From: an uncultured Gammaproteobacteria bacterium
Lineage (GTDB): Bacteria; Patescibacteriota; Microgenomatia; Levybacterales; UBA12049
Direction of reading: 5' to 3'
Assembly: GCA_964512695.1 (NCBI GenBank)
Contig: CAZEJU010000002.1
Span: 1 to 61,992 of the forward strand
DNA length: 61,992 nucleotides
This document shows, piece after piece, positions 12,870 to 56,262 of this stretch. Numbering within the stretch: the first letter of the stretch is position 1; each line of letters begins with the position of its first letter. The position numbers and the translations under genes were made by a program. The notes under the pieces are model-generated. The model had not been told where the DNA came from. It did not search any database and saw only the letters and a program-made list of their open reading frames with translations.

Positions 12870-13967
12870 TTATATTACCTTAATCGTTCCCCGATACATT
12901 CCCATGCTGCACATGAATGCTAATTCTGTTGGCTTATCTGGAGCAGTAAATGTTACCGTATCTGAACTTCCCATAGGAACTACTTTCTGTACATTAAGTT
13001 GTGGAATAGTAAATGCTTGCGCACACCCTATGGCATCATTATTAACGATCTTTAACGTTACTTTCTGACCATGTTTTACAGAAAGTGTATTTGGGAAATA
13101 TCCTCCATCAGTAATTGTAATTATTGTTCCATCACCAATACTACGAATGTTTGTACCAGATGAATTCTCCTCGGAAGAACAAAAACTAATAGCACAGTGT
13201 ACAGCCTGTAAACCACTCTCAATGGTATATTTACTCCCTGAAAGTGCAACTGCATTATTGATATTAAAAATTGCTAATAAAACAATGGCATAGGCAGCTA
13301 CTTTCGTAAACCTCTCATGGAGTATATCTCCTAAGCGAGTCGTCAAATATCCTAAGAGAAAAAATACTGGTGAAGTACCCAAAACAAAAGTAAATAAGAC
13401 AACTGCACCCAGTATAGGGTTGCCGGATGCAATAGCTAATGCCATCATCGCTTGTGTAGTACCACAAGGAATAAAGATCGTTAATGCTCCCAGAAATGCT
13501 GGAACAAATATATCTTTTTTTTTTGATTGTCTTCTAATAAAGCGTGTTAAAAATCGTGGCGGTTGTATTACAAAATAACGAAATACTGGATGGACATTTA
13601 ACATGTTTAATGCTGTTCCTATCATGAAAAATGCTACAAGTATTTGAAGGAGAACTTGTGTTTGTATTGACAAAGTAAAAAAAGAACCTAACCAACCCAA
13701 AAAGAAACCCAAACCAGTATATGCAACTAATTTCGCAACTAAAAAAGAAATAATTGGCAATGCACTATTTCTATTCTTGAATCTTGAATCCTGCACCGCT
13801 TCTGAGAAGCTAGTCTTGTTGGAGGAAATCTTGAATCGTTCAACTAGCTTCTCTTGCTCATGCTGCGCAAGTGTAGCTGCCAACAAACCTCCTTGTACTG
13901 CCATACACGTTAGACCACCTGTTAATAACCCTGTTGTAAAAACTGTTAGTAAATTTACGTTTTCCAT
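12870..13967 (-). CDS. Polytopic membrane protein (TauE/DsbD_2-like) fused to a C-terminal cupredoxin-like domain
   Basis: About 6 TM helices with a CGTTQAM motif. The C-terminal ~100 aa is a beta domain ending FMCSMGMYRGTIKVI. It sits in the copper operon context. It also carries a heptamer block at 13774-13794. Confidence 0.6.
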   Translation of the reverse strand: MENVNLLTVFTTGLLTGGLTCMAVQGGLLAATLAQHEQEKLVERFKISSNKTSFSEAVQDSRFKNRNSALPIISFLVAKLVAYTGLGFFLGWLGSFFTLSIQTQVLLQILVAFFMIGTALNMLNVHPVFRYFVIQPPRFLTRFIRRQSKKKDIFVPAFLGALTIFIPCGTTQAMMALAIASGNPILGAVVLFTFVLGTSPVFFLLGYLTTRLGDILHERFTKVAAYAIVLLAIFNINNAVALSGSKYTIESGLQAVHCAISFCSSEENSSGTNIRSIGDGTIITITDGGYFPNTLSVKHGQKVTLKIVNNDAIGCAQAFTIPQLNVQKVVPMGSSDTVTFTAPDKPTELAFMCSMGMYRGTIKVI

Positions 13968-14052
13968 GCTTTATTCATCTCAACAGCTTTATTACGCTGT
14001 TGTATCATCTCTATCTTTTTTTGTAAGGATTTTATACTGCCCATACTCTATC

Positions 14053-16599
14053 TTATACTACGCTCTTTTTCAACCTTAGAGAATTTATAACAACGGATAC
14101 AGAACTAAATGCCATTGCAGCTCCAGCGAAAACTGGACTTAAAAGAATACTGTAAAAAGGATATAAAATACCAGCTGCAAGAGGAATTCCGATAATGTTA
14201 TAAATAAATGCCCAGAAAAGATTTTGTTTTACAGTTCTCATTGTCAATTTTGAAATACGAATAGCATGTGAAACTTTTTGAATATCACCTTTTAAAATAG
14301 TTAATTGAGCAACACCAATAGCGACATCTGTTCCAGTACTCATAGCAATTCCTATATCAGCAGTAGCTAAAGCAGGTGCATCATTGACACCATCCCCTAC
14401 CATCGCGACGAGATTGCGTCGTTCTGAATTTCCAATTTCCAATTTCCAATTTCTAGTCGATTTGACATTTGACATCTTTAATTTTTCAACAATCTCTGCT
14501 TTCCCATCAGGCAATACTTCTGCATATACTTCATCAATACCAACTTTTTCAGCAATATATTTTGCTGTGTTTTTATCATCTCCAGTTACCATAAGAACTT
14601 TTATGCCTTTTTTATGAAGTTCGTCAACCGCTTGTTTTGCATTTTTTTTAACAGTATCCGCAATAAATACAGAACCTAAAAAATTATTTCCATCAGTTAA
14701 AAAGATCGGTGTTTTCCCTGTTTTTGTATATGATGTAATTTCGTCATTATCTATAGCTATCCCTAATTCTTTCATGTATGTCATATTTCCTGCGAAATAT
14801 ACTTTCTTTTCAATAGTTCCCGTAACACCTTTCCCTTGAACAATACGAAAATCTGTGACATCTGATAATGAGATGTTTTCTTCTTGTGCTTTTAGTAATA
14901 TTGCCTGCGCTAAAGGATGTTCTGATCCTTTCTCAAGAGACGCTAATATTTGTAATAAACTTTGTTCACTTTTTATTTTTGAATCGTAATCTTGACTTTT
15001 AACTTTTGAGTTTTGAGTTTTGATAATATCAGTTACAACAGCTCTCCCCGTTGTTATCGTTCCAGTTTTATCCACCACTACCGTCGTAACATCACGTAAT
15101 TTTTCCAAACTTGCAGCATCTTTCACGAGAATTCCCAGCTCTGCTGCTTTACCCACGCCGACAATAATTGCAGTCGGTGTTGCTAAGCCTAATGCACACG
15201 GACAGGCGATAACTAATACTCCAACAAAACTTGTTAAACCAAGTGTTAAAGCATCAGTAAACGGTATGAATTGTATCCCAACTACCAACCAAACAATAAA
15301 AGTGGCAAATGCCATAAACATCACAACGGGGACGAACACAGCTGAAACTTGGTCAGCCAAACGTTCAATAGGGGCTTTGGAGTCTTGGGCATTTTCTACC
15401 ATCTGAACAATATGCGCGAGCAATGTATCTTTTCCTATTTTCGTTGCTTCTATGATCAAGACACTTTGTTGATTAATCGTACCACCCACAACTGCATTAC
15501 CAACTGTTTTATCTACTGGAATCGGCTCTCCAGTTACCATCGATTCATCAATAGATGAATCCCCCTCAATAATTTTCCCATCGGTTGGTATTTTACTACC
15601 GGGCTTAACTATTAAAACATCTCCCACTTCCACTTGCTCTATTAGCAACTCAACTTCCTTATATATTTCACCTTTTTTATATTCTTGAATCGTAAATCTT
15701 GAATCATGAATCGATTTTAATACCAATGCAGTTTTTGCTTGCAGCTGTATAAGTTTTTCCAACGCTTCTCCAGTTTTTCTTTTAGATGCAGCCTCTAGAT
15801 ATTTACCGAAAAGTATAAATCCAATAACGACAATCGTTACATCATAATATAACGCTTCAGATAAGCCGAGATTCTCTGCAGTTTGTGGAAAAAAAAGAAT
15901 AAATGAAGAATAAAGATATGAAGTTAATGTTCCCATTCCCACTAGTGTATCCATACTTGCTTTTCGCACTTTGAGAAACCGTAAAAATGCGTCAACAAAC
16001 AGTCTACCAGGCATAAAAAGAACAAAAGTAGCGATGAAAAATAAATGCATTTGATAAAACTTCATCGGAATTGGAAACGCTGGAAGCTCTGGAAGGAACT
16101 GAGAACTAACTTCCCACATCATTGCAAAAAACACAAAAATTGCTAAAGGAAAAACGAACATTGCTTTCTCTTTTTCTTTTTGTAGCTCAGCTTCTTTCGG
16201 TGGTTGGGTATGAAAAAAGTGATCCACCTCTCCATTATGCATCGAGCGATGTATTACCGCTTGCATGACGAAACCATCCGGCATCAACTGTGGTTTTTGT
16301 TTGCTTTCAACGTCCTTGTACTTTATTCTTGAATCTTGAATCCTGAATCCTGGATCTACTTCCTCTAAGGAATACCCATACGATTCAAGCTTTTTATTCA
16401 TTTCGTCAACGGAAATTTTAGAAGGATCAAATGTAATCTTCGCTTTTTCTGTAGCAAAGTTAACGCTACAAGCGGAAATACCAGGAAGTTTATTTAGAGT
16501 ACGCTCAATGTTAGCTTTGCAACTTGCACAATGCATTCCTTGCACAGGAAACGTATCAGTAACAAATTGTTCTGTATTGTCTTTGTGTTCTTTGTTCAT
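14053..16599 (-). CDS. copA: Copper-translocating P1B-type ATPase
   Basis: N-terminal HMA ([11 protein letters not shown]), [19 protein letters not shown] and [14 protein letters not shown] motifs. It contains four low-complexity inserts encoded by 7-nt repeats. Confidence 0.95.
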
Positions 16600-16641
16600 A
16601 CTTCATACTTCATACTTCTTACTTCTTACTTCTTACTTTAC
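16594..16641. repeat. Tandem heptamer array (CTTCATA/CTTCTTA) spanning the copA start and the DUF305 stop
   Basis: The sequence ttcatacttcatacttcatacttcttacttcttacttcttactttac has a strict 7-nt period. Confidence 0.85.
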
Positions 16642-21897: not shown

Positions 21898-21968
21898 AAT
21901 TTACAAATTATAAGTTATAAGTTAGAAAATAACTATTTAGGACTTGTGACTTATAACTCGAGACTCCA

Positions 21969-22498: not shown

Positions 22499-22840
22499 CT
22501 ATTCCGGTATTTTTCCAAGTTCGCCTCTAATAATTCTCTTCTCACCCGGCTTCTGTCCTTGCGTTCCTCTTTTTAATTGTGCTAATTTCCACATAAATAA
22601 TGCGCCTTTATTTTTTGCGTTACTATCACTGACGAAAGATAATGCCTTTTCTAATAATGCACGATGTTCTGTTTTCGCAAGCTTTATATATAAACTTTTG
22701 TGTTTATAATCATTTAATTCTTCACTTAACCGAATACCAAAATCTTGAAATTCGCGGGAAATATACTTGTCTGTAGTGGGATTAAATTTATCAAGAACGG
22801 TTTTAATAGACTGCATACAAAAGAAATAAGAAATAAGCAA
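22499..22840 (-). CDS. Hypothetical protein
   Basis: 113-aa ORF with helical, basic composition. The likely start is the internal Met at 22816. No family recognised. Confidence 0.4.
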   Translation of the reverse strand: MLISYFFCMQSIKTVLDKFNPTTDKYISREFQDFGIRLSEELNDYKHKSLYIKLAKTEHRALLEKALSFVSDSNAKNKGALFMWKLAQLKRGTQGQKPGEKRIIRGELGKIPE

Positions 22841-22893
22841 AAAATAATAAGCTATATAATAATACCATACATCTGCCTATCACTTATCTCTTA

Positions 22894-24359: not shown

Positions 24360-25838
24360 TTAAAACTCAAGACTGAGTTGATTCGTAGGAACTTCGCTTC
24401 GCTCTTTTACACCTTCTCCTTCTTGCCAAATATGAACAGTACCATATTCTCCATCATACCCAGGGTCTACTGTAAGAACGCCCCTTCTCACTCTCTCTAC
24501 TGTTTGAGCGATTCTCTCTGCTTGTGTTGCTCCCGACTGACGGGCTATTGTTTCTATATCTTCTAACCTTGTCTTTAAAAGCAGATTAATTTCTGAATCT
24601 GTTTTACACATTTCTGTATATAACTTTTTAATTTTTATACTGGTTGGTGTCATCTCTAAGGCTGCTGCGAGGATTTGTTCTAGCCTTACTAACTTTACGA
24701 AAGGAGGATGTGATCGGGAAATATCAGTATGCCACTTAACCCCACTTTCACTAATCTTTTCTGTATAGTTTTTTGCAAATTCTGCACCTGCAAGTTGTTC
24801 AATTCTGACTGCTACTCCTTCTGTTAGTTCGCGTTTACAGACAGAACATACGCTTCCCTTTTCATCGGAATCTTTTGGTGACAATGAAATCTTACATGCT
24901 CTATGACCCGAAAAATGATACTTCCCCTCTTCAGGATAGAATTCGATAGTATAGATAATTCGGTTATCTGTTTTCGTTTTTCGGTTTTCGGCTTCCTGTT
25001 TTTCAATTTTCGGTTCTTCAGTTCGTTCAACTGATTGACCGATGACCGACTGACTGCCAGCTGAAAACCGACCACTGAAAACAGATAACTGACTCGGACG
25101 CATAATCGCCTCTCTTAACTTTGAATATGTTGGAAGACTACCTTCCAATTCGAATACCGTTGCCTCGCGTGCCATATTCGCAGGACTATGTGCATCAGAG
25201 AAAGACAATATCGAACGATTCGCTAATTCACCTATGCGCCAATTCATCTCGGGATCACTGGAAATACCTGTTTCTATTCCGTAAATATACCGACTGAACT
25301 CACCAAACGCTTCATCTAAACTATCAAATCCTGATTTTGATCCGTAAACTCCAAAATGTGGCGTCCATACATGACAAGGGATTAGCATACACCGTTCATC
25401 AATTCCAAGTATAAGTTCGAATAAATCTTTCGACGATAAACCAATAATGGGTCTTCCATCTGCATTGAGGTTTGCTCCACGTTTAGCTAATGTCTCATTA
25501 ATTTTCTGGGCAATCTGAAGATTTGGTGAGAAAATGAGATTATGAATTCTCCGTAACTTACCTCCTTGTTTATAAATACTCGCAATCTCAGTTGAAAGAA
25601 GAAAATATACCTCTTTCTCCTTATTTTCCCCGTCTTCTCTTAATCTGAAGATCCCTTCTTCTGCTTCTTCCAGCTGTGCGCTTATTTCTTTAAACCATAC
25701 AGGATGTGTAAAATCAGATGCTGAAAGAATGTCTAAACCTTTTTGTCTGGCATATTCAGCCATTACAGGAAGCGTCATTTGCTGAGAAACGGCGCGTGAG
25801 TATTTCGAATGAAGGTGCAAATCGGCTACATATTGCAT
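24360..25838 (-). CDS. Endonuclease Q-like PHP-domain nuclease
   Basis: Collinear with archaeal EndoQ as I recall it: DLHLHSKYSRAVS, RIHNLIF, GRPIIGL, HVWTPHFG, SFSDAHSP, then the zinc finger region GKYHFSGHRAC...CSVCKRELTEGV and a C-terminal DPGYDGEYG. It carries a ~44-aa repeat-encoded insert. Confidence 0.75.
   Translation of the reverse strand: MQYVADLHLHSKYSRAVSQQMTLPVMAEYARQKGLDILSASDFTHPVWFKEISAQLEEAEEGIFRLREDGENKEKEVYFLLSTEIASIYKQGGKLRRIHNLIFSPNLQIAQKINETLAKRGANLNADGRPIIGLSSKDLFELILGIDERCMLIPCHVWTPHFGVYGSKSGFDSLDEAFGEFSRYIYGIETGISSDPEMNWRIGELANRSILSFSDAHSPANMAREATVFELEGSLPTYSKLREAIMRPSQLSVFSGRFSAGSQSVIGQSVERTEEPKIEKQEAENRKTKTDNRIIYTIEFYPEEGKYHFSGHRACKISLSPKDSDEKGSVCSVCKRELTEGVAVRIEQLAGAEFAKNYTEKISESGVKWHTDISRSHPPFVKLVRLEQILAAALEMTPTSIKIKKLYTEMCKTDSEINLLLKTRLEDIETIARQSGATQAERIAQTVERVRRGVLTVDPGYDGEYGTVHIWQEGEGVKERSEVPTNQLSLEF
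24961..25093. mobile_element. RPE/MITE-like palindromic element inserted in-frame in the EndoQ gene
   Basis: The terminal inverted repeat CGGTTATCTGTTTTC (24961-24975) matches the reverse complement of GAAAACAGATAACTG (25077-25091) at 14/15 positions. The interior consists of TTTTCGG and CTGACCG unit runs around a CAGTT...AACTG core. Homologous copies are at 39750-39872 and 53655-53764. Confidence 0.7.
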
Positions 25839-27043: not shown

Positions 27044-27044
27044 T

Positions 27045-27717: not shown

Positions 27718-29496
<1,779 letters not shown>

Positions 29497-29508: not shown

Positions 29509-29590
29509 AGTCCTAAGTTACAAGTTCTAAGTCCTAAAATAAATTTACACTCTGTGACTTAAAACTCATGACTTATAACTTGTGACTTCC
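29509..29590. repeat. Inverted pair of heptamer runs (AAGTYAY family)
   Basis: agtcctaagttacaagttctaagtcctaaaat faces gtgacttaaaactcatgacttataacttgtgacttcc. Confidence 0.8.
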
Positions 29591-29930: not shown

Positions 29931-29969
29931 GCAGACTTATAACTTACGACTTGTAACTTAGGACTTCTA

Positions 29970-31049
29970 CTACTTCATAATGTATTTCGCTGCTTTTGTC
30001 GTCCCTGTTTTCTTCACTAATCCAGACGTAATTAAACCTTTTAATTCATTTAACACAGTATCTTCGGAAACAAACTGAAATAATTGTTTAAAAGCACTAT
30101 TTTGTAAATAACCAGTTTCCTGAATATATTCAATAATTTTTAGCTGTCTTTCAGATAATAGCAATGGCTTACCACCAAGTTTTGATTTTAATTTACCATC
30201 AACGGAAATCTTCTCGACTTTTTCTTTAATTTTGTTCAGTTCTATAGCGAGCCCTTCTGTATAATATTCAAGCCATTCTGTTTGATTACCATCGTTTTTA
30301 GTGACTGACTGTAAAGCAGCATAATATGCTCCTGCATCTCTATCGAAATATTCCTCTAATGAAAAAAACCGACGAATATCATATCCTTGCTGAAAGAGGA
30401 TAAGTGTCGATATTGCACGAGCAACCCGTCCATTACCATCTATAAAAGGATGAATTCTGACTATTTCATAATGAACAACTCCGCTCTTCAAAACAGGATG
30501 AATATCCTGATCTGTCGACTTTTCCACGAATCCAAGAAGTTCGCGTATTTGGAATGGGACTGATATAGCTGGGGGTGGACGGAAAGTTATTTCTCCTGTT
30601 TGACTGTTCTTTATTACAACTTGTGTTTTCCTATACTCCCCACACCTTTCAATTGCAAGAATTTTTTCAACTGTGAGTTTATGAACATATTTTACTAATT
30701 CCTCATCTACTTGTAACTTAGGACTTCTAACTTGCAACTGTTCAACATATTCCATTACCTTTCGATAATTAATTACTTCCTGCACATCTCGCTGTCTTGC
30801 TACGATCTCTTGTCCCATAAGCACTTTCTCTGCTTGTGTTAAATTTAATTCATTTCCTTCGACATGTGTTCCATGATGCACTGTACGGACGAGAGCATCT
30901 TGCTGGAATTTCTTTTCATAATATGGAAGAAGAGGCGCATGATCTATGACCTCTTTCGAAGCTTCAATAATACCGATGTTTCGAAGGATGGTGTTGGTGA
31001 TTGTATAGGCTGGTTTATACATAAGTAATAAGTGATAAGCAACAAACAA
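29970..31049 (-). CDS. Fic family protein (AMPylase-type) with a C-terminal wHTH
   Basis: HPFIDGNGRVAR core motif with a Fic_N-like N-terminal region. The likely true start is the Met at 31022. A heptamer block lies at 30717-30750. Confidence 0.88.
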   Translation of the reverse strand: MFVAYHLLLMYKPAYTITNTILRNIGIIEASKEVIDHAPLLPYYEKKFQQDALVRTVHHGTHVEGNELNLTQAEKVLMGQEIVARQRDVQEVINYRKVMEYVEQLQVRSPKLQVDEELVKYVHKLTVEKILAIERCGEYRKTQVVIKNSQTGEITFRPPPAISVPFQIRELLGFVEKSTDQDIHPVLKSGVVHYEIVRIHPFIDGNGRVARAISTLILFQQGYDIRRFFSLEEYFDRDAGAYYAALQSVTKNDGNQTEWLEYYTEGLAIELNKIKEKVEKISVDGKLKSKLGGKPLLLSERQLKIIEYIQETGYLQNSAFKQLFQFVSEDTVLNELKGLITSGLVKKTGTTKAAKYIMK

Positions 31050-31079
31050 TAAGAAGAAATATGCATCTATAGTTATTAC

Positions 31080-31499
31080 TTATCTCTTCTCGCTTTTTTG
31101 TGATTGATGAAGTCGCCATATAATTCTACCGCATTCTTCCTTCATTTGTAGCAACTTATCATAATCAGGTTGTTTAATCAAACCATGCTGCTTAGAGAAG
31201 TAAAGTAAATATTCAACTTCAGCTAAAGAACCAAGTGCTATAGAAAGAAAATGCCGGAATTCATTTTTATTAATACGCGCATATCCTTCGATTATATTTA
31301 AAGGGACTGACAAAGCAGCCCGCTTTAACTGAGATGTTATACCATATAACTCTTCTTGTGGAAATAGTAAAGTAGCAACATATATAGCAGAAGCAAGTTG
31401 ATCAGATTTTTGCCATGCGATCAACTTCTTGTAGCCCTGTACATACACAATACTTATTTCTTGTTGCTTATCGCTGATCACTAGATTCAATAGTCGCAT
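31080..31499 (-). CDS. Four-helix-bundle protein (PF05635 / Avd-like)
   Basis: YKKLIAWQKS...SQLKRAALSVPLNIIEGYAR.NKNEFRHFLSIALGSLAEVEYLL, the family signature. The probable start is the GTG at 31448, because the first ~17 codons are repeat sequence. Confidence 0.8.
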   Translation of the reverse strand: MRLLNLVISDKQQEISIVYVQGYKKLIAWQKSDQLASAIYVATLLFPQEELYGITSQLKRAALSVPLNIIEGYARINKNEFRHFLSIALGSLAEVEYLLYFSKQHGLIKQPDYDKLLQMKEECGRIIWRLHQSQKSEKR

Positions 31500-31845: not shown

Positions 31846-32793
31846 CACTTCTTTCATAACAAAAGGAATTTCATTTGCTAGATCTGACGAATTAAATGTA
31901 TACCCAACTTTTCGGAATAAGCTATCCCCTGCTTTTTTATTTAAATAGCTTCCTACACATGCACTTACATAGAGTTCATTCTTACATGCTAACGCTGCAA
32001 GAAGTCCAGCAAGCACATCACCAGTTCCGCCTTTCGTCATACCTGCATTTCCTCCAGCAATGGAGATACATGCTGAAGGGGAGCAAATAACATCCTCCTC
32101 CCCTTTTAGCAAAATAATACAGTTATATTCTCTTGCGATAAGAGATAAGTGATAAGCAATAAGGTCTAAATCTATTTTGTTTTTCATATCGCTTATTGCT
32201 TGTTGCTTATCGCTAAACAGCATTTCAAACTCTCTCTGATGCGGTGTGATAACAACGTTCCCATTCAACTGTTTCAACCACTCAGGATCCATCATCTGTA
32301 AACTCCCGCCATCGATAACCCATTTTTTATGAGAATACTTATCGAGCAAATATTTTGTTAACCAATATGTCTGCTCCCCCTCATCAGACAATTCATTAAT
32401 GACTTTTAGGTCATAAGTTTTAAGTCCTGAGTTATAAGTATTTTTTTTATTTAGTACTTGTGACTTAGGACTTAAGACTCCTTCACTTCTCATCAATCCC
32501 GGTCCTATGAGTATACAGTCAGCTTCTTCAGCATAATCATCTATCTTCTCTCTAGGAATAACGATACCATTACGAAATTCTGTTTTTGCTTGTCGAACAA
32601 TTTCGTTATTTTCAGGAACTGAAGCATAAAATACCATGTCGACAATTTTACTTGCGATAGTTAGAGCCCATAAGGAAGCAGCGTGAAATAAATGAGAACC
32701 GCCAACGAGAAGCAACTTCCCATTCTGCCCTTTATGAGAATCTGAAGGTGGAATATAGAGATTCTTTAGTAATTGGGGATCAAATTCCTGCAT
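31840..32793 (-). CDS. nnrD: ADP-dependent NAD(P)H-hydrate dehydratase (YjeF C-terminal type)
   Basis: HKGQNGKLLLVGGS ... GGNAGMTKGGTGDVLAGL. Two hairpin-forming repeat inserts lie within the CDS. Confidence 0.85.
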   Translation of the reverse strand: MQEFDPQLLKNLYIPPSDSHKGQNGKLLLVGGSHLFHAASLWALTIASKIVDMVFYASVPENNEIVRQAKTEFRNGIVIPREKIDDYAEEADCILIGPGLMRSEGVLSPKSQVLNKKNTYNSGLKTYDLKVINELSDEGEQTYWLTKYLLDKYSHKKWVIDGGSLQMMDPEWLKQLNGNVVITPHQREFEMLFSDKQQAISDMKNKIDLDLIAYHLSLIAREYNCIILLKGEEDVICSPSACISIAGGNAGMTKGGTGDVLAGLLAALACKNELYVSACVGSYLNKKAGDSLFRKVGYTFNSSDLANEIPFVMKEVL

Positions 32794-32798
32794 ATAAA

Positions 32799-32888: not shown

Positions 32889-32889
32889 A

Positions 32890-36344: not shown

Positions 36345-37256
36345 TTATAACACCTGACACACAGCACAGAAGAACGTTCCTCTTCCTCCTAAAGCTATTT
36401 TTTCTATCTTTGCTCCACAGCGTACGCATGGCTTGCCAATTTTTCCATATACGAGAAAGATTTTCTGATATGAGCCTTCCTGACCTAGTGCATCCACATA
36501 TGCCCATTCACTCGAGCCTCCAGCTTCTAGACCTTTTTTCAATACCTCTTCAATCGAATTAAATAACTCTCCTACTTCTTTTTGAGTTAAAGAGTTCGCA
36601 ACCTGCTTCGGATGAATTTTCGCAAGCCACAATGCTTCGTTCGCATAAATATTCCCTACCCCAGCCATTTTTGATTGGTCCATTAGGAGTGGCTTTACTG
36701 GTCCTTTCGTAGAAGCAAGTATTTTCTTAAACATTGCGAGCGTTAACTGTTTAGCCCCTGAGCTTGTCGAAGGGATAAACTCAGGCCCAAGAGATTTAAA
36801 AAATAGAAGTTCACCCACTTCAGAGGTTTTTACTACTTTTATCCACCCAAACTGCCTAACGTCGTTATAATAAAGATATGCTTTGCTACTATCATTTCTC
36901 AACTCTCCATTCTCAACTCTCAACTCAAATATCACGTGTGTCGCTTTCCCGGGCAACTCCCCTACCTTATCTGACAATACAGCTTTTGATACCTTTGATA
37001 CTTTTCCTACCTTCCCCTCTTGAAAAATCAATTGTCCTGTCATCTTAATATGAATTGCGAGACTGTAATCATTATCTAAATCAATTACCAATCCTTTTCC
37101 ATACCTCCGAACACCTGTAATCACAGCGCCAATAATCTGTTTCGGATCACCGCTCAGTTGTTTCGGCAAGCGGATCTCAACATCATCAATAATGTAGCCA
37201 ACGAGGTATTTTTGAAGTTGTTTTCTAATAGTTTCTACTTCAGGTAATTCAGGCAT
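36345..37256 (-). CDS. mutM: Formamidopyrimidine-DNA glycosylase
   Basis: MPELPEVE N-terminus, H2TH region, and a C-terminal zinc finger C.RCG......GGRGTFFC..CQ. Repeat-encoded inserts are present. Confidence 0.9.
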   Translation of the reverse strand: MPELPEVETIRKQLQKYLVGYIIDDVEIRLPKQLSGDPKQIIGAVITGVRRYGKGLVIDLDNDYSLAIHIKMTGQLIFQEGKVGKVSKVSKAVLSDKVGELPGKATHVIFELRVENGELRNDSSKAYLYYNDVRQFGWIKVVKTSEVGELLFFKSLGPEFIPSTSSGAKQLTLAMFKKILASTKGPVKPLLMDQSKMAGVGNIYANEALWLAKIHPKQVANSLTQKEVGELFNSIEEVLKKGLEAGGSSEWAYVDALGQEGSYQKIFLVYGKIGKPCVRCGAKIEKIALGGRGTFFCAVCQVL

Positions 37257-38397
37257 TATTTTTTATTTTTTCATTAATAAAACTTCTCATTTCTTTCATA
37301 AACCGTTCTTTTGAAAACTTCTCAGCCTGCTCTTTACAAACCTTCGGATCAAATTTCATAGTTTCAAATTTTTTAATCGCTTTAGTTAAACTTTCCACAG
37401 TCGGTTCACTAAAAAACACACCTGTTTTTCCATCGATAACTGTTTCTTTATATCCTCCACCATAATATGCGATAACTGGTGTACCACAGAACATGGATTC
37501 CACGGGTGTAATTCCGAAATCTTCATCAGTCGCAAGCGCGAGAAATGCTTTTGCATGTGTATATAAATCAATCAACTCTTCATCAGAAACTCTTCCTAAA
37601 AATTCTATATTCTCATTTGCAGTCTCGGATATTTTCTGCGCCACAGAAGAATATCCAGAAGATACCCCAGCAATTTTTAGTTTGATACCGAGTTTATTCG
37701 CCGCCTCGACAGCTAATTGCAATCCTTTTCCACCTACTAAACGCGCAACGATAAAGTAATAATCCTTCTTGTGATTTTCCATTTTCGATTTTCCATTTTC
37801 CATTAGCAAGTTCACAGGTGGATAAATTACTGTGGATTCTCGGCGATAGAATTTTGCTATACGTTTCTTAACTTCTTCTGAGTTAGCGATAAAATAATGT
37901 ACTCGTTGTGCCGCCCGGAAATCATACATTCTCATGAAGTGTCCTATGATTATTCCGTACAGTTTTATTGGCCAATACCGCTGCCATTCTACAGATGTCG
38001 TATATCCATATAACCACCGAGGGGGCGTATGACAGTAACAAACCTCAATCGGACGTGTAACTTGTGACTTGTAACTTGTAACTTCCTTTACTACCCCTTT
38101 CGTAATATACCAAGAGGCTGAAGTGATGACGATATCGTACCCTGAAAAATCAAAGCTCTTCCAAATGAGCGGAGCTAAAAAACGAAGTGGACTATGAAGT
38201 TTAGTGGGAAAAAAAGGAATCTTATGAACCCACGAAGTAATAATCCGTCGATGTTTAAACCGATCATATGCTGGTGAATCCTTTTTATAAAACGAGGTAT
38301 AAAGAGGAGCATCAGGAAACATTTCGCACAGCGCTTCCAGAACTCTCTCTGCTCCCCCGTATTCTTTTAGATAATCATGGACTAATGCTACTTTCAT
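37249..38397 (-). CDS. Glycosyltransferase family 4 (GT-B fold)
   Basis: EDFGITPVESMFCGTPVIA, the E-x7-E region. Two heptamer inserts are present. Confidence 0.78.
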   Translation of the reverse strand: MKVALVHDYLKEYGGAERVLEALCEMFPDAPLYTSFYKKDSPAYDRFKHRRIITSWVHKIPFFPTKLHSPLRFLAPLIWKSFDFSGYDIVITSASWYITKGVVKEVTSYKSQVTRPIEVCYCHTPPRWLYGYTTSVEWQRYWPIKLYGIIIGHFMRMYDFRAAQRVHYFIANSEEVKKRIAKFYRRESTVIYPPVNLLMENGKSKMENHKKDYYFIVARLVGGKGLQLAVEAANKLGIKLKIAGVSSGYSSVAQKISETANENIEFLGRVSDEELIDLYTHAKAFLALATDEDFGITPVESMFCGTPVIAYYGGGYKETVIDGKTGVFFSEPTVESLTKAIKKFETMKFDPKVCKEQAEKFSKERFMKEMRSFINEKIKNNA

Positions 38398-38474
38398 AAA
38401 GATTCAACAAACAAGATTCAGGATTCAAGAGGTCTTAATCATTCTTGAATCTTAGAATTATAAATCTGAAAGGG

Positions 38475-39146
38475 TTATACTCGATCAATTATTTCGCGTA
38501 ACTCTTCTTCTGTTTCAAGAAAACCTTTCACACCGAGATCTACAAATTCTTCTTTCGCATTATAGCCATTTAATAAAATGTAGCAATTTACTCCTGCACC
38601 TAAAGCAGCCTCCGCACCGATGCGGGTATCTTCTACTGCGAAACAATCCTTTGCTTCCTTTCCCAACTTTTCCACTGCTTTCAGATAAATCTCTGGATTT
38701 GGTTTCGGGTGAGTAACATCATCTTGAGAGATAATATCTCTGAACTTTTCAGTAACACCAAGAGCCTTTAAGGTCATATCAATTGATTTGCGTTTACTAT
38801 TTGAAGCCAGCACAAATGTATGTTTACTTTGTCGCAATACTGAGACAGTTACAGAAACTGGTTGTAAATAAGACACGAGATTATTATGTTTCTCCTGTAT
38901 ATATTCATCTAAGACTTCTTCTGCGTGTTCTGCTTTCTTTAATAGACTGAGAAGAATATCTTTCGTTGTTCTACCGAGAAAACTTTTTTCATGATGTGAG
39001 GTTAGCTCTATCCCCCGCTTTATAAATATAGCCTGCAACATCTTAAAACGTGCCGGTTCACTGATAACCAACACCCCATCCATGTCGAAAATAATCGGTT
39101 TAAGAGTATTCTGATGAAATAATTTCATAGTTGATTCAAAATTCAA
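38475..39146 (-). CDS. HAD-superfamily hydrolase (beta-phosphoglucomutase-like subfamily IA)
   Basis: IIFDMDGVL motif I, S/T motif II, and K...ED motifs III/IV. Confidence 0.8.
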   Translation of the reverse strand: MNFESTMKLFHQNTLKPIIFDMDGVLVISEPARFKMLQAIFIKRGIELTSHHEKSFLGRTTKDILLSLLKKAEHAEEVLDEYIQEKHNNLVSYLQPVSVTVSVLRQSKHTFVLASNSKRKSIDMTLKALGVTEKFRDIISQDDVTHPKPNPEIYLKAVEKLGKEAKDCFAVEDTRIGAEAALGAGVNCYILLNGYNAKEEFVDLGVKGFLETEEELREIIDRV

Positions 39147-39194
39147 GATTTAAGACACTAACTATGATATTTTTCTTAAATCTTACTTCTTATA

Positions 39195-40232
39195 TTATAT
39201 GTCCATTAATCCTAATTGCTGGCCTTTCTTCTTTTCTTCAATCTCTTTAAATAACGGGTTAAAGCGTTTTAATAAACTATTAAACCCATACTGCTCGAAC
39301 ACTTCCAAAGCTCCTTTTATATTCAATTCAGACGTTTTACAGGTTTCCAGCTCACAAGTAATAGGAACATCTCGTAAAATAGTTGCTAGCTTTTTGGCAA
39401 GCGCTGCCTGTTCAGCATCTGTCGCTAATTTCTCAGCGACTTTCGGCGGTAATTCGCCAATGCGTTCATACAGCGCTTCAAAAGTACCAAAATCTTTTAG
39501 TAAACTTGCAGCAGTTTTCGGACCTATACCTGTTACACCTGGATAACCATCTGAAGGATCACCGATTAACGCTTTATAATCGACAAACTGCGATGGTTTT
39601 ACTCCATACTTCTCCTCTACTTTTTTTTCATCATACAAAACAGTTTCTTTCACACCAACGACCGGCATCAACACCTTTGTATTTGTGTTCACAAGCTGTA
39701 ACAAGTCCCTATCCCCTGTCAGTATTATTGTTTCGATATGCTCAGTAATCGGTTTTCTGTTTTCAGTTTTCTGTATCTTGTTTACCAGTTTTCTGTCTAT
39801 CCGATTCTGACTGTTCAGTTGATCAACTGGCTGACCGGTCGCTGACGACTGATCACTAGCAACCGACAACTGCACTTGCGAAGCAAGTGTCCCTATCACA
39901 TCATCAGCTTCAAAACCTTCCACTGCAAATATAGAGATATTCATTTTTTCTAAAGCTTCCCGAAGCATCTCGAATTGAACCGCTAAATCATCTTCCATTT
40001 TAGGACGATGCGCATGGTAGCCAGCATACATTGCTTGTCTGTAAGTAGGAGCTGAGATATCGAAACTGACGATAACATATTCTGGTTGTAGATCTGAAAT
40101 GACAGTAAAAAACATACTAAAAAATCCATACATGGCATTAATTACAGTACCGTCTGGAGCTGTAAGAGGTGGAAGCGCATGATACGCACGATGTACAATC
40201 GCATTACCATCAATTAAAAGAAGCTTAGCCAT
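39195..40232 (-). CDS. 5'-3' exonuclease (stand-alone Pol I N-terminal / FEN-like domain)
   Basis: LLLIDGNAIVHRAYHA, FEADDVIGTLA, TGDRDLLQLV and an H3TH region GVTGIGPKTA. There is a ~41-aa repeat-element insert between FEADD..LA and TGDRD. Confidence 0.88.
   Translation of the reverse strand: MAKLLLIDGNAIVHRAYHALPPLTAPDGTVINAMYGFFSMFFTVISDLQPEYVIVSFDISAPTYRQAMYAGYHAHRPKMEDDLAVQFEMLREALEKMNISIFAVEGFEADDVIGTLASQVQLSVASDQSSATGQPVDQLNSQNRIDRKLVNKIQKTENRKPITEHIETIILTGDRDLLQLVNTNTKVLMPVVGVKETVLYDEKKVEEKYGVKPSQFVDYKALIGDPSDGYPGVTGIGPKTAASLLKDFGTFEALYERIGELPPKVAEKLATDAEQAALAKKLATILRDVPITCELETCKTSELNIKGALEVFEQYGFNSLLKRFNPLFKEIEEKKKGQQLGLMDI
39750..39872. mobile_element. RPE/MITE-like element, second in-frame copy (in the 5'-3' exonuclease gene)
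   Basis: The left end CGGTTTTCTGTTTTC is 13/15 identical to the EndoQ-copy left end. The core is the palindrome CAGTTGATCAACTG followed by CTGACCG/CTGACGA runs. The span is 123 nt, or 41 codons. Confidence 0.65.
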
Positions 40233-40610: not shown

Positions 40611-40666
40611 TTGTAACTCATAACTCATAACTCATAACTTATAACTTGTAACTTATTACTTCTTAT
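40611..40666. repeat. Tandem heptamer array (AACTCAT/AACTTAT/AACTTGT), about 8 units
   Basis: ttgtaactcataactcataactcataacttataacttgtaacttattacttcttat, directly upstream of the promoter at 40677. Confidence 0.9.
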
Positions 40667-43033: not shown

Positions 43034-43208
43034 AACAATTTCAAGAGTATACCAGCTTTATAAAATAATTTCCAATTGCAAGTTTCCAGTCTCCAATCAG
43101 TTTCTTACTTCCTAAATTCGAATTTAAATTTGAAATTCGCAATTCGAAACTGGAAACCACCTTGTTCGCGTCCATATAGTACCGAAAAAGTTTTTTAAAA
43201 ACAATAAG

Positions 43209-49969: not shown

Positions 49970-51349
49970 CTATAACTCCTGAACTGCTTTTTTAAATAGT
50001 TCTCCTCGTTCTTTATAGTTTTTAAACATTCCGAAGCTTGCGCAAGCTGGAGAGAGTAATACTACATCCCCTGGCTCAGCGAGTATTGCGGCATTTCGCA
50101 CAACCTCCTCCATGCTTTGTAAACCTTCAACAATCTTTAATTTTTCACTTTTCATTTTTAATTTAATTTTGTTCCATTCGTCTCCGATACCTATAACAGC
50201 TTTAATATTTACCCTCGTACTAATAAGTTGACCAAGTTCGGTAAAATCACTGTTTTTACTCGAACCACCAAGAATTAAAATCTCTGGAGCATCAAATGCT
50301 TCGATTGCGGCAATAGCAGTTTCTGGTGTCGTAGAAAAAGAGTCATCATAATACCGTACGCCTCTAAAATCTCGCACTAACTCTAAACGGTGTTCTAAGC
50401 CCTTGAATGTTTTCAATACCTTAGCTATAGAGGTAAGAGACACACCCGCTAGGTTAGCAGCCATAGCAGCAGCACAAACATTTTCTAAATTATGTCTTCC
50501 AGGCAATACTATATCCGACGTCTTTACTACCTCGCGTTTGCTATCATGTTTCTTAAGCCACACTGCTCCATCTTTTACATAACACCCGTCTGTATAAGCT
50601 TCCCGCTCCCGGCTCACCTGAAATATTTTCGCCTCCGTATGAATATCTGATTCGTGACTCGCTAAGTAATCACGATTAATAACCGCGAAATCATCTGGAC
50701 CTTGCCAGCGAAGAATATTTCGCTTCGCGTCAACGTATTCCTCCATACTCTCATGGTAGTTCTGAGTTCCATGTACATCTTTACCTAAATGCTCCCCCAC
50801 AATCATGAGCATAACCGAAATGTGAGGACTCACCTGCATATCTTCTAACTGGAAACTTGATAACTCTAGAACAACCCATGACGTAGGTTTTAGTTTGTCA
50901 ATAAACTGTAACGGCGGCACACCAATATTCCCACCAAGATATGCGTCAAGCCCTTCTTCTTTCAGCATTTCGTAAATCAATGTAGAAGTCGTTCCCTTCC
51001 CTTTCGTACCTGTGACACCGATAATCGGCGAGGGACATGCCTCGAAAAATAAAATTGTATGTGAGGTAACCTTAACTCCTTTTTTTTCAGCTTCAATTAA
51101 TTGTGGAAGTGTGCGCTTTACACCTGGACTGCGGACAATAATGTCAAATTCACTTAGTCCCTCTAAGTAGTCTTTTCCTCCACTTACCTGTATATCTTTA
51201 TTCTGCAATTCAGGTATGTTATGTATGTCTTCCCGCTGATCCAGTACTGTCAGTATCGCTCCTTGTTTCAATAGATATTTAAGAGTCTCAATCCCTTCTG
51301 TTCCTGCGCCGATGATAGCAACTTTTTTATTCCGAAAATCTGTAATCAT
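49970..51349 (-). CDS. murD: UDP-N-acetylmuramoylalanine--D-glutamate ligase
   Basis: N-terminal Rossmann GAGTEG, GVTGTKGKGTT P-loop, and Mur ligase middle and C-terminal domains. Confidence 0.9.
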   Translation of the reverse strand: MITDFRNKKVAIIGAGTEGIETLKYLLKQGAILTVLDQREDIHNIPELQNKDIQVSGGKDYLEGLSEFDIIVRSPGVKRTLPQLIEAEKKGVKVTSHTILFFEACPSPIIGVTGTKGKGTTSTLIYEMLKEEGLDAYLGGNIGVPPLQFIDKLKPTSWVVLELSSFQLEDMQVSPHISVMLMIVGEHLGKDVHGTQNYHESMEEYVDAKRNILRWQGPDDFAVINRDYLASHESDIHTEAKIFQVSREREAYTDGCYVKDGAVWLKKHDSKREVVKTSDIVLPGRHNLENVCAAAMAANLAGVSLTSIAKVLKTFKGLEHRLELVRDFRGVRYYDDSFSTTPETAIAAIEAFDAPEILILGGSSKNSDFTELGQLISTRVNIKAVIGIGDEWNKIKLKMKSEKLKIVEGLQSMEEVVRNAAILAEPGDVVLLSPACASFGMFKNYKERGELFKKAVQEL

Positions 51350-51437
51350 AGTTAAATTTTTAATTTATAATTTTAAATTTGAAATCAATTTTTAATATTC
51401 TAATATTTAGATTTGAATAAAAATTAAAAATTTTAAA

Positions 51438-52259
51438 CTACAAATTAACCCGTTCCACCTGTATTGTAGTTCCTAGTAATTTTTTTGCAACTGTCGAAAA
51501 TGTTTCTACGCTTCCTGATGTAGAGAATGCATGCTGTGCTTGTTCTGCTTCCACTAATTGGTTATTCGATGCCAATACTCTTCGTGCATGACGAGCGATA
51601 GCACTACTTGGCTCAAGCAACACAACCTGTTCTCCGAGTATGTGCTGTATTTCCATAGCCATAAAAGGATAATGCGTACACCCTAGCGCGAGCGTATCAA
51701 CGTCATTTTGTATAAAAGGAATTAACACATCGCGAAGAATATGATTAACTTCTTTGCCATAAGTTTGTCCATCTTCTATAAGGGGAACAAGTTTATCTGT
51801 GCCTATGTTTATAACTGTACATTTCTGAGCAAATTTTTGTATCAACTGTTTTTGGTAGCTACTCTCTGCTGTTCTTACTGTAGACAGTATCCCTATGCGC
51901 ATATTTCTAGTTTTTTCGGCTGCTGTTTTAACGACAGGTACAGTTCCTATTATAGGGATCATCGGATAATCGTTGCGTAGTCTATCAAGACTCGACACTG
52001 TAATAGTATTACAAGCAACGATAATCAGCTTCACATTTCTTTGAAGCAAAAATATAACGAGACGCTTTGCCAAGCTATAAATTTCTTGAGGAGACTTTGT
52101 TCCATAAGGAATATTTTGGGAGTCAGCGATATAGAGAGTGGACTCGTGAGGTAACTCTTTTACTACTTCTTTCCAAACAGAAAGTCCACCAACACCAGAA
52201 TCGACAATACCAATGGGACGGGGAATTGAGAATTGAGAGTTGAAAGTTGAGAGTTGCAT
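51438..52259 (-). CDS. murI: Glutamate racemase
   Basis: IGIVDSGVGGLSV, VACNT and LGCTHYP catalytic Cys motifs. The first ~12 codons are heptamer-repeat sequence. Confidence 0.9.
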   Translation of the reverse strand: MQLSTFNSQFSIPRPIGIVDSGVGGLSVWKEVVKELPHESTLYIADSQNIPYGTKSPQEIYSLAKRLVIFLLQRNVKLIIVACNTITVSSLDRLRNDYPMIPIIGTVPVVKTAAEKTRNMRIGILSTVRTAESSYQKQLIQKFAQKCTVINIGTDKLVPLIEDGQTYGKEVNHILRDVLIPFIQNDVDTLALGCTHYPFMAMEIQHILGEQVVLLEPSSAIARHARRVLASNNQLVEAEQAQHAFSTSGSVETFSTVAKKLLGTTIQVERVNL

Positions 52260-52303
52260 AGATAGTTTTTAATTCTCAATTCTCCATTCTCAACTCTCAA
52301 TTC
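52223..52303. repeat. Inverted pair of GAGTTGA/GAATTGA heptamer runs bracketing the murI start codon
   Basis: The left arm 52223-52256 is coding and the right arm 52271-52303 is 5' UTR. The ATG (52257-52259) sits in the 14-nt loop. Confidence 0.85.
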
Positions 52304-53654: not shown

Positions 53655-53764
53655 AGTTATCAGAAATGGGTTGCTTGTTCTGTTAATCAGATTGTGAATA
53701 AAACTGGCAAACTGAAAACAGACGAACTATAATCTGAAAATTGAGAACAGAGAACAGATAACTA
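53655..53764. mobile_element. RPE/MITE-like element, intergenic copy upstream of truB
   Basis: The ends are AGTTATCAG ... GAACAGATAACT. The interior CTGAAAACAGACGAAC and GAGAACAGAGAACAG runs are related to the EndoQ and exonuclease copies. Confidence 0.55.
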
Positions 53765-53774
53765 GGTAACACAT

Positions 53775-55344: not shown

Positions 55345-55598
55345 GTAGAACGTGAAACCTGTGAATGAAAAATATAAAATATTTACTATCAACTCTTTCT
55401 GATTCTCTTTCTAAAAAGGTTTTTTTAGAAAGACGTTAAACTTTCTATACCTCCAAGATTCAATAATAGAGTTATAGCAAGCACGATAGGAATTCTTACT
55501 CTTAGCAAGATCCGTATCCTCTTAGTCATCCTTCTCATTGTGATAAATCGCTCTGTGTGTAAAGTTGCCTATATGACGGCTATGATATACTGCATGTA

Positions 55599-56153
55599 AT
55601 GGAAACAGCAACGTTTGGAGGAGGATGTTTCTGGTGTACGGAAGCAGTTTTTAAAAGATTAAGAGGTGTTAAAGAAGTAGTATCAGGATATAGTGGAGGT
55701 AATCGACCAGCTGGAGGGAAAAAACCTTCTTATGAACAGGTCTCGACAGGAATCACCGGACATGCGGAAGCTGTGCAGATAACGTTTGATCCTTCAGTCA
55801 TTTCTTTTAGCAAACTTCTTGACGTTTTTTTCGCTACACATGACCCAACCACCATGAATCAACAAGGTGCGGATATCGGGACACAGTACCGTTCTGTCAT
55901 CTTTTATCACACTTCCGGACAACACCAAGAAGCAATCGCAACGATTAAAGAACTTGAAGAGAAACAAGTATTTACTAATAAAATAGTTACGCAGCTTCTT
56001 CCCTTTCAAACATTTTACACAGCAGAAGAGTACCATCAAAACTATTTTGATACAAACCCGTTACAGCCTTACTGTCAAATCGTAATCACTCCCAAAATAA
56101 GAAAGTTGTTAGAAAAATATGGAAATGATGTAAAAGACGAATACAAAGCTTGA
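55599..56153 (+). CDS. msrA: Peptide-methionine (S)-S-oxide reductase
   Basis: ATFGGGCFWC active site and GHAEAVQI..DP. Confidence 0.93.
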   Translation: METATFGGGCFWCTEAVFKRLRGVKEVVSGYSGGNRPAGGKKPSYEQVSTGITGHAEAVQITFDPSVISFSKLLDVFFATHDPTTMNQQGADIGTQYRSVIFYHTSGQHQEAIATIKELEEKQVFTNKIVTQLLPFQTFYTAEEYHQNYFDTNPLQPYCQIVITPKIRKLLEKYGNDVKDEYKA

Positions 56154-56189
56154 CATCATTTATAAAATGTAGGACACTAGATCTAGAAA

Positions 56190-56262
56190 TAAAGCGTGAA
56201 GCGTAAAGCCTGAAACTCTATAGTATGTACTAAGTTTTACGTTTCAAGTTTTACGTTTTACG
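56190..56262. repeat. Inverted pair of GCGTAAA-family heptamer runs (hairpin) after msrA
   Basis: aaagcgtgaagcgtaaagcctgaaactc ... agttttacgtttcaagttttacgttttacg. Confidence 0.8.

Follow-up and report, generated by a model that had tools for sequence, protein, structure and literature searches.

Tandem heptanucleotide arrays and inverted pairs between and within genes of a Levybacteria-like bacterium

How can tandem repeats with a unit of 7 nt lie both between genes and, in frame, inside conserved genes of one bacterium, and what process writes them there? The question is raised by contig CAZEJU010000002.1 (assembly GCA_964512695.1) from an uncultured bacterium, of which the whole stretch from position 1 to 61,992 was analysed (hereafter the window; 62 kb, 49 open reading frames or ORFs); tract and ORF counts refer to this whole stretch unless related loci are named. 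The homologues of its ATP-dependent DNA ligase at 70-80% identity come from metagenome-assembled genomes (MAGs) labelled Candidatus Levyibacteriota, Levybacteria, Parcubacteria or Patescibacteria; since these best homologues are MAGs of the candidate phyla radiation (CPR), the window is taken to come from a Microgenomates-type (Levybacteria-like) CPR bacterium. No close relative of this genome was found in the protein collection, where its ligase forms a single-member cluster from one contig and the nearest other sequence stands at 80% identity, and no pair of Levybacteria loci among the GTDB representatives exceeded about 89% identity. Strain pairs of related species were used for population comparison because the window genome lacks near relatives. 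The host genes named in a preliminary description of the window were borne out, i.e., ATP-dependent DNA ligase, CopA, Fic, NAD(P)HX dehydratase (NnrD), Fpg, a GT4 glycosyltransferase, MurI and TruB, and MurD and a 5'-3' exonuclease were also identified.

The 7-nt periodicity of the window is strong and specific. Tandem Repeats Finder returned 78 rows, about 50 of them with a period of 7, 14 or 21, spanning 1.1-56.3 kb. Autocorrelation at lags 7 and 14 gave z of about 6 against codon-block shuffles and was near 0 at other lags that are not multiples of 3. A simple tract detector found 33-37 period-7 tracts in the window against 0.4-1.6 in shuffles, and with the same detector periods 5, 6, 8-13 and 15 remained at background level. 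The preliminary description, which had noted families of 7-nt micro-repeats across the window, was thus right on this point, and every coordinate block that it listed was recovered, although 31453-31481 proved to be only a degenerate GATAAGC arm and 40263-40302 is only 73% similar to 36316-36348. The range that it gave (13774-56262) was too narrow, as elements also lie outside it, e.g., at 1094-1146.

The full census contains 47 period-7 tracts with 1332 nt, or about 2% of the window. Twenty-seven of the 47 lie entirely within ORFs, and 15 of the 49 ORFs are touched. Intergenic DNA holds 39% of the tract bases and makes up 14% of the window, the remaining 61% of tract bases being genic; among the 38 spacers of at least 30 nt, 15 contain or touch a tract. 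Units whose tandem form brings in stop codons whichever way it is oriented, e.g., TAACTTA at 40614-40665, were found between genes only. The reading frame runs through the intragenic arrays, giving low-complexity peptides that are mostly hydrophilic, and repeat-derived loops of 7-45 extra, mostly hydrophilic residues occur in about a quarter of the window proteins.

The units fall into families, as had been proposed: 104 pairs of units differ by no more than one mismatch, compared with 29.6 (maximum 50) for random stop-free heptamers of the window, and the families are real. The arrays also occur as facing inverted pairs, 14 of which were found. The preliminary description had placed such pairs between genes; they exist there, but four are inside genes (ORF 24360-25838, nnrD twice, and truB). 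Twelve pairs were folded as single-stranded DNA, with z values of -1.5 to -7.0 against dinucleotide shuffles, and for six of the twelve none of 200 shuffles matched the pair. The stems are 19-64 nt long and AT-rich, with loops of up to 46 nt, and the whole element is an inverted repeat of 50-135 nt. The mismatches between hairpin arms (33 G-T, 33 A-C and 39 other) are mostly transitions without strand bias, and therefore fit inverted duplication at the DNA level followed by neutral decay.

What do the coding copies do to their host proteins? Orthologue alignments were made for nine proteins, TruB being compared with solved structures only. Judged from these alignments, the intragenic heptamer blocks are insertions relative to homologues in every case checked, as had been supposed: all intragenic tracts examined lie at hypervariable loops where relatives have another heptamer unit, another hairpin repeat, or nothing. 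In the ligase, the peptide KMENGKWKME lengthens the loop between SPLHT and GYALRFPR by 8-18 residues compared with the Sulfolobus, Pyrococcus and human enzymes (2HIV, 2CFM and LIG1). Among 22 CPR ligase orthologues, length variation is confined to this loop and three others, which contain peptides with a 7-residue period derived from differing units, e.g., SRQSSVV and ANGEGQR. Solved structures were used for the ligase alignment because the AlphaFold model was largely unusable (mean pLDDT, the predicted local distance difference test score, 58.5, with only the N-terminal domain usable); it placed the first insert in a loop, and not the second.

CopA was compared with 17 orthologues and with ATP7B. 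The insert at 14427-14475 is absent in 16 of the 17, and in the remaining one, from related locus L084 (protein P0151), a related (TTTCGAA) hairpin is present, so that the units at one loop differ between genomes (AATTTCC and AATTTCG). At 14977-15024, L084 and L085 have a non-heptamer hairpin repeat and most orthologues have nothing. The block at 15681-15715 is shared with P0151 of L084 only and is absent in L085 and 15 other orthologues; the orthologue P0157 has a different insert just upstream of this site. In nnrD two sites were compared. At residues 105-132, orthologues carry nine or more different heptamer units or no insert; at residues 194-220, L001 has a non-heptamer hairpin repeat, other orthologues have single heptamer arrays and many have nothing. 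The single arrays at the nnrD sites use at least nine units across genomes (GGGGAAA, AAGTTCA, GCAAATG, ATTTCAA, CAAATCT and others), and other genomes have there hairpins with heptamer arms, unrelated hairpin repeats (VILSxAKNL...QDD), or nothing.

The remaining proteins agree with this picture. At the Fic site (30709-30750) orthologues have other heptamer-type peptides or longer inserts. The inverted pair in ORF 24360-25838 adds about 45 residues where 20 orthologues have either nothing or a different filling, and the Fpg insert (36892-36930) is absent in most orthologues. The GT4 peptide VTSYKSQVT is missing from the closest orthologues (L010, L009 and L029) and replaced by RIQNSKFRA in L075, with heptamer-type inserts a few residues upstream in more distant homologues. 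KIQKTEN of the 5'-3' exonuclease is part of an insert missing from most orthologues, and VPSSIFHLD...ENGKLQMEN of TruB is extra relative to the solved TruB structures. It had been supposed that only triple-unit changes of 21 nt would preserve the frame; the arrays do not consist of whole 21-nt triples (there are arrays of e.g. 4.6 and 3.9 units), and it is the whole insert that keeps the frame. A second class of in-frame palindromic repeats, without heptamers and not present in the window, was encountered in nnrD of L001, L018, L019, L023 and L032 and in copA of L084 and L085; these repeats are read as VILSxAKNL...DPSxxxQDD or VIPNLFRDP...MLKQVQHD.

The preliminary description had proposed a search for unit-number heterogeneity, and this search was positive in L088 and L089, two assemblies of one related species with 99.5% identity along 21.3 kb. 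Just three small internal indels separate them, of 7, 49 and 14 nt, and all fall in intergenic heptamer arrays: one GAGTCCT-type unit, (TAAGTCA)11 versus (TAAGTCA)4, and (AGTAGTA)4 versus (AGTAGTA)2. Seven intragenic arrays, including perfect (AAAGTTC)4.9 and (GCAAAGG)4.1, are all unchanged, and the rate of single-nucleotide polymorphisms in the tracts is not raised between the two assemblies. Length change in whole 7-nt steps is thereby shown directly, and the unchanged intragenic arrays speak for purifying selection on them; such changes between near-identical strains are as expected for slipped-strand mispairing or unequal exchange. In a second pair, L080 and L081 (95% identical), the one internal indel in 2.3 kb, of 27 nt, is in the ligase array, where the unit sequences differ too, which looks like concerted turnover. 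In protein clusters at 90% identity every internal length difference falls at the same hot-spot loops.

Slippage by itself cannot account for everything, since blocks of several units are met again elsewhere. The sequence at 29949, after the fic stop codon, is identical over 21 of 21 nt, comprising three different units, to that at 30709 inside fic. A 31-mer of fpg at 36896 is 94% identical to a hairpin arm at 52273-52303 beside tRNA-Met. Four GATTCAA arrays have the boundary TATTCTTGAATC in common. An intergenic hairpin (21885-21975) and an nnrD hairpin (32408) align over their full length with similar ends, hairpins of this one family sharing the ends GGAGTC/GAAGTC ... GACTCC/GACTTC. The CopA block TCGATTCATGATTCAAGATTYACGATTCAAGAATA is identical at 35 of 36 nt between the window and L084, in genes that are 69% identical, and is missing in L085; its 16-mer core GATTCATGATTCAAGA is also found in intergenic hairpins of the window and of L017, and thus in three genomes including L084. 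Judging by these identities, multi-unit blocks have been copied from one site to another far away, in some cases out of intergenic DNA and into a gene.

The preliminary description treated the repeats as a property of the window, and they are far more widespread. We counted 217 period-7 tracts in the 994 kb of 66 CPR-like loci that surround the ligase gene, where other non-harmonic periods gave 10-47; in 13 high-GC outgroup loci (Rubrobacter, Chloroflexota and Thermobaculum; 197 kb) there was none. Most of the related genomes have the periodicity. The density is patchy, many genomes having 3-16 tracts per 10 kb, and 250 tracts use 119 distinct units. No period-7 tract was found in more than 15 kb each of the Levybacteria clade L009, L010, L029 and L052, nor likewise in L042, L065 and L071 (from a MAG with a ligase of only 41% identity). 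The period-7 arrays are therefore a lineage-wide feature of Levybacteria-type CPR genomes and not special to the window. The proteins of the tract-free Levybacteria loci (L009, L010, L029, L052, L042 and L065) usually lack the loop inserts and form a natural negative control; two of the tract-free loci stem from complete chromosomes of 1.3-1.6 Mb. The longest heptamer array in any locus, a perfect (TTACTGA)x15, is at 17230-17336 of L085, the closest sequenced relative. Arrays of four or more (GATTCAG) units were also present in 16 viral contigs from IMG/VR (L090-L105), mostly with a GC fraction of 0.5-0.6, one of which (L104) has 11 period-7 tracts including STRR3-like AACAGTT units; the GATTCAR unit is therefore not CPR-specific, which has no bearing on the route by which the arrays spread.

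We consider it probable that the elements are heptanucleotide simple-sequence arrays, similar to the short tandemly repeated repetitive (STRR) sequences of cyanobacteria, together with palindromic derivatives, which are resized by slippage, copied between sites and tolerated in genes when in frame. Two parts of this account are shown by the comparisons: 7-nt arrays are born and resized at a high rate that is specific to the lineage, and blocks of arrays are copied between sites and into inverted orientation, with template switching, ectopic conversion or transposition as candidate routes. The inverted pairs would come from template switching or from an array being duplicated palindromically, and the elements would be essentially selfish or neutral DNA. 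Selection would remove frame-breaking arrays, so that only in-frame, stop-free copies in tolerant surface loops persist in genes, as the distribution and the strain comparisons suggest; this filter is proposed because of the intergenic excess, the restriction of stop-bearing units to spacers and the confinement of intragenic tracts to variable sites. The tolerant loops may remain hot spots in which arrays are born, homogenised, replaced and lost.

Several points weigh against this account. Slippage alone explains neither the clustering of units into families within a genome nor the near-identical CopA insert in diverged genes (35/36 against 69%), and it cannot give recurrent whole hairpins with similar ends, so that a copying step is required. 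The 7-nt steps were seen in a related species and not in the source genome. The preference for 7 nt is not explained, the polymerase-footprint idea being a published speculation that PMC4692102 and PMC4679880 quote, and the tract-free Levybacteria clade argues for a lineage-specific factor rather than a universal property of the polymerase.

The copying evidence is also what would be expected if the elements were small non-autonomous mobile palindromes, of the type of MITEs (miniature transposable elements with inverted repeats), REPINs (paired repetitive extragenic palindromic, REP, sequences) or Rickettsia palindromic elements (RPEs), moved in trans by a transposase such as Y1/RAYT that another part of the genome encodes; the 7-nt periodicity would then belong to the element arms, with slippage as a secondary process. 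Within one family the hairpins have common ends and can be aligned from end to end, be they intergenic or inside nnrD; identical multi-unit blocks stand at separate loci, with the 16-mer in three genomes; the nearly identical CopA insert is absent in a third relative; and whether a genome has tracts depends on its clade. Beside the ligase gene of the related locus L080 there is a gene for a RAYT-like Y1 transposase (PF01797, 30.3 bits versus a cut-off of 23, with HUH and YxxH motifs). Yet this gene occurs in only one of the loci examined, and the 62-kb window contains neither a transposase gene nor an insertion sequence. Neither target-site duplications nor GTAG/CGTC heads were seen; no consistent duplication appeared at the element ends, and no empty-site allele was close enough to fix the boundaries. 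The diversity of units (119 in 250 tracts) and the many single-armed arrays weigh against a mobile palindrome, and the strain-level changes observed were all length changes in 7-nt steps, none being gain or loss of an element. We regard transposition in trans as possible but rather doubtful. Within the L080 gene (3120-3650) lies a palindrome of 28 nt, perfect and GTAG-headed (3384-3411), whose reading is VGTGRDLSL; direct repeats of 25 nt (3116-3140 and 3654-3678) flank the gene, and no heptamer elements do.

The elements might instead be functional in cis, as stem-loops that terminate, process or stabilise transcripts or as 7-nt arrays that bind protein, the genic copies being spill-over. The proportion of spacers with tracts (15/38) and the stability of the hairpins relative to shuffled sequence favour such a role, as does the placing of several elements immediately behind stop codons, behind tRNA-Met or within the spacer from tRNA-Ala to 23S. 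Intrinsic (Rho-independent) terminators, defined by a GC-rich stem, a short loop and a T-run, were considered and rejected, the stems here being AT-rich and without terminator signal: no heptamer hairpin stem has a T-tail, and a terminator-like scan of the window gave 14 sites against 13.0 expected, none at heptamer hairpins. Selection on the hairpins at the RNA level was likewise unsupported, as the arm mismatches have no G-U bias on either strand. Rfam at the gathering threshold matched only a 23S rRNA fragment and two tRNAs in the window, and no heptamer element. There is no detectable sign that the hairpins are selected as RNA structures, given the mismatch pattern, the AT-rich stems, and the absence of T-tails and of terminator or Rfam matches. 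The same elements are present within coding sequence, and unit sequence and copy number turn over rapidly between species and even strains. A cis-acting function is thus unlikely to be their explanation.

We give slightly less credence still to a dedicated activity (an HUH/Y1 nuclease, a specialised polymerase or a repair deficiency) that is specific to the tract-rich clades, lacking in the tract-free one, and writes and copies the arrays and their hairpins throughout the genome, essential genes included, with loops and leader switches used adaptively. If it were so, the fast-evolving loops could vary surfaces recognised by phages or hosts, and 7-nt leader switches could phase-vary expression. 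In the array at 16595-16638 three ATG codons stand 7 nt apart in three frames, directly upstream of and including the CopA start; a change in copy number there could alter initiation of CopA translation. Chance, compositional bias or an assembly artefact can practically be dismissed: nothing beyond the AT-rich composition of the units speaks for it, the excess over shuffles is found at period 7 only, and an artefact is unlikely because a sequencing read is longer than the tracts and the same arrays come up again in separate, independent assemblies made from related strains and in dozens of related genomes.

The genomes of CPR bacteria rank with the smallest and most streamlined on record. Despite this streamlining, about 2% of the window is repeat DNA, and repeat-derived loops are carried by about a quarter of its proteins, among them DNA ligase, CopA, TruB, Fpg and GT4. 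The arrays reveal a strong mutational process with its own periodicity in a little-studied phylum. They account for many odd low-complexity insertions and length differences in CPR protein families, which degrade homology search and structure prediction, and they predict 7-nt heterogeneity at strain level that can lead to apparent frameshifts, pseudogenes and broken assemblies in CPR MAGs. The tract-rich and tract-free Levybacteria offer a natural experiment on why heptanucleotide repeats are favoured in bacteria. The elements of the window are collected in Table 1.

Table 1. Period-7 arrays, inverted pairs and adjoining features, with positions in the window
Feature	Position	Strand	Remarks
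GAATTCT-type inverted pair	1094..1146	.	spacer between tRNA-Ala and 23S rRNA 5' end; DNA fold z = -2.8
tRNA-Ala	1397-1470		upstream of 23S rRNA (5' part at 1-989, minus strand)
GATTCAA array, 2.3 units	13775..13790	-	inside DsbD/cupredoxin gene 12870-13967; boundary TATTCTTGAATC common to three other copies
CopA insert directly before VAMVGDG	14427..14475	-	perfect (AATTTCC) x3.9 + (ATTTGAC) x2.3
CopA insert, TTTTGAG/TTTTGAC units	14977..15024	-	
CopA insert, GATTCAA family	15681..15715	-	
CopA GATTCAA/GATTCAG array (FRIQDSRIK)	16325..16357	-	variable linker after metal-binding domain
(TTCATAC)3(TTCTTAC)3 array	16595..16638	.	spans CopA start codon and 5' leader; directly after DUF305 gene stop
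AAGTYAY-family hairpin	21904..21960	.	directly downstream of ogt; about 80-85% similar to nnrD element 32408-32481
GATAAGA/GATAAGC inverted pair	22821..22892	.	immediately after pth stop codon
133-nt inverted pair, TTCGGTT/CTGAAAA arms	24960..25092	-	ORF 24360-25838; DNA fold z = -7.0, RNA fold -60 kcal/mol
ATP-dependent DNA ligase insert KMENGKWKME, perfect (TTTCCAT) x4.6	27849..27880	-	in the loop that precedes motif VI (GYALRFPR)
Ligase array KSKVKNQNSK, TTTTGAA-type units	29174..29205	-	loop between helices 90-99 and 110-122; length varies at this site even among relatives that are 95% identical
AAGTYAY-family hairpin	29509..29580	.	upstream of ligase start codon
Single-arm AAGTYAY array	29934..29969	.	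directly after fic stop; 21-mer ACTTGTAACTTAGGACTTCTA identical to 30709-30729 in fic
Fic insert region QLQVRSPKLQV, AAGTYAY units	30709..30750	-	
GATAAGY inverted pair	31021..31095	.	between 23S-IVP-like gene and fic, upstream of conserved fic start; tract 31021-31049 probably 5' untranslated region of fic because it is upstream of conserved start MYxP
nnrD inverted pair, GATAAGC family	32125..32223	-	aa 194-220
nnrD inverted pair, AAGTYAY family	32404..32481	-	aa 105-132; z = -5.4; 27-bp stem with only five non-Watson-Crick positions, all G-T
GATTCAA-family hairpin	32794..32893	.	fills recF-like/nnrD spacer; holds 16-mer GATTCATGATTCAAGA
GTTAGAA array	36319..36347	.	at and after fpg stop codon
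Fpg insert RVENGELR, GAGTTGA units	36892..36930	-	
GT4 insert MENGKSKME, GGAAAAT family	37773..37804	-	hypervariable inter-domain loop
GT4 insert VTSYKSQVT, AAGTYAY family	38052..38086	-	
GATTCAA-family hairpin	38399..38460	.	between HAD hydrolase gene and GT4
GATTCAA/GATTTAA array and hairpin	39134..39190	.	between 5'-3' exonuclease gene and HAD gene
(GTTTTCT) x3.3 array, KIQKTEN	39752..39774	-	5'-3' exonuclease
(TAACTYA) array, about 7 units	40614..40665	.	longest single-arm intergenic array; stops in both orientations
AATTTCC/AAATTCG-type inverted pair	43067..43151	.	upstream of ftsH
Weak AATTTTT-type array, 80% matches	50132..50164	-	inside murD
AT-rich inverted pair, AATTTTT units	51355..51446	.	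between murI and murD; weakest hairpin, z = -1.5
GAGTTGA-family hairpin	52223..52303	.	directly 3' of tRNA-Met (52309-52383, minus strand); z = -4.1; overlaps first 12 codons of murI ORF as called
Short GAGAACA array	53743..53762	.	upstream of truB
truB inverted pair, TTCCATT/TGGAAAA	54032..54138	+	encodes VPSSIFHLD...ENGKLQMEN
GCGTAAA-family hairpin	56195..56262	.	between msrA and next gene downstream

Other features of the window were noted beside these elements. A palindromic motif of about 90 nt stands directly upstream of the trxB, ogt and recF-like starts (8290-8400, 22361-22470 and 33978-34100, minus strand); its arms have an 8-nt period, ACTACCAATCAAT ... CATTGATTTGTTTATTGG..GGTAGTA, and flank a promoter-like TTGCA..TATAT. 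Relatives of this motif are found upstream of the same genes in L084 (4374-4484), L088 (~5619) and L089 (~6093), and it looks like a conserved operator of a small regulon for redox and DNA repair functions. The 5' part of the 23S rRNA (1-989, minus strand), which is cut by the window edge, covers model positions 1-860 with about 130 nt extra, and this extra sequence may be an rRNA insertion typical of CPR. Next to fic, at 31080-31499 (minus strand), is a free-standing gene whose product is a "23S rRNA intervening sequence protein" (23S-IVP; PF05635, a bAvd-like four-helix bundle); homologues occur at varying positions in L084, L085, L088 and L089, with an extra fragment in L088 in a 474-nt strain-specific segment. 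Three regions of 0.7-0.9 kb each (40233-41158, 52869-53774 and 35652-36344) contain no ORF of at least 100 aa and no Rfam match, and the ORFs 34925-35227 and 35157-35651 overlap each other and have no Pfam match.

How, finally, do the elements compare with known systems? REP and REPIN sequences are extragenic, 20-40 nt long, with GTAG or CGTC heads and RAYT transposases (PMC3116915, PMC3733652). Like the window elements they are short, imperfect, multi-copy palindromes, often in inverted doublets, whereas in the window the arms start with GGAGTC or GAAGTC, the stems measure 19-64 nt, several elements are intragenic and there is no RAYT gene. The direct repeats with the unit TAACTGA in marine Beggiatoaceae, in cyanobacteria and in Bacteroidetes (PMC4679880) likewise occupy many intergenic spacers, often just upstream of starts, with few copies in ORFs and in a patchy set of taxa; however, they consist of one dominant unit, are almost wholly intergenic and are rarely inverted, in contrast to the many units, coding copies and hairpins of the window, from which TAACTGA tandems are absent.

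Heptanucleotide repeats in general are the most over-represented long simple-sequence repeats (SSRs) in many prokaryotes according to Mrazek (2007), as cited in PMC4692102 and PMC4679880, two sources that also relate the proposal of polymerase slippage as the cause. Known examples are the STRR of cyanobacteria, the GGGAATC repeats of Xanthomonas and the TAACTGA repeats of Beggiatoaceae (PMC4692102, PMC4679880). As these sources present them, long heptanucleotide SSRs are like the window arrays in having tandem 7-nt units, a patchy phylogeny, length variation between close relatives and presumed slippage, and the Xanthomonas heptamers form occasional inverted pairs (PMC4692102), as here. They are described there as mainly intergenic, with units that are not a multiple of 3 expected to be rare in coding sequence, whereas 61% of tract bases in the window are genic; the window further differs in its 15 of 49 ORFs touched, its many hairpin pairs and its reduced CPR genome. 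The STRR of Calothrix, Nostoc and Anabaena similarly comprise several dispersed families of tandem heptamers without known function. Their units CCCCAGT, TTGGTCA and CAACAGT do not form a two-unit tandem on either strand of the window, which differs from them in its AT-rich units, its frequent in-frame coding copies and a CPR host instead of a (heterocystous) cyanobacterium.

A literature search for heptamer repeats together with CPR, Patescibacteria, Microgenomates or Levybacteria found no description linking the two. The preliminary suggestion that the combination had not been described holds to this extent for CPR, but the type of repeat is already known; the novelty lies in the combination and the host lineage and not in the repeat type, because heptanucleotide repeats are already over-represented in many bacteria. 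A parallel for the coding copies is provided by the RPEs, in-frame palindromic insertions as summarised in PMC10969869. Both are palindromes of a reduced genome that occupy spacers as well as, in frame, conserved genes that have no relation to one another, and both add peptide segments at positions compatible with the fold. RPEs, compared here by description, are about 100-150 bp long and form sequence families with a conserved peptide and no heptamer tandems, whereas the window elements are 50-135 nt long, have arms of slipping 7-nt arrays, are commonly single-armed, and encode peptides that vary with unit and frame, in a CPR host and not in Rickettsia. The elements share the behaviour of both STRR and RPEs and belong to neither, whether judged by sequence or by host. 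By analogy, the net effect of heptanucleotide arrays born, resized, copied and filtered by reading frame would be one that resembles the palindromic elements of Rickettsia.

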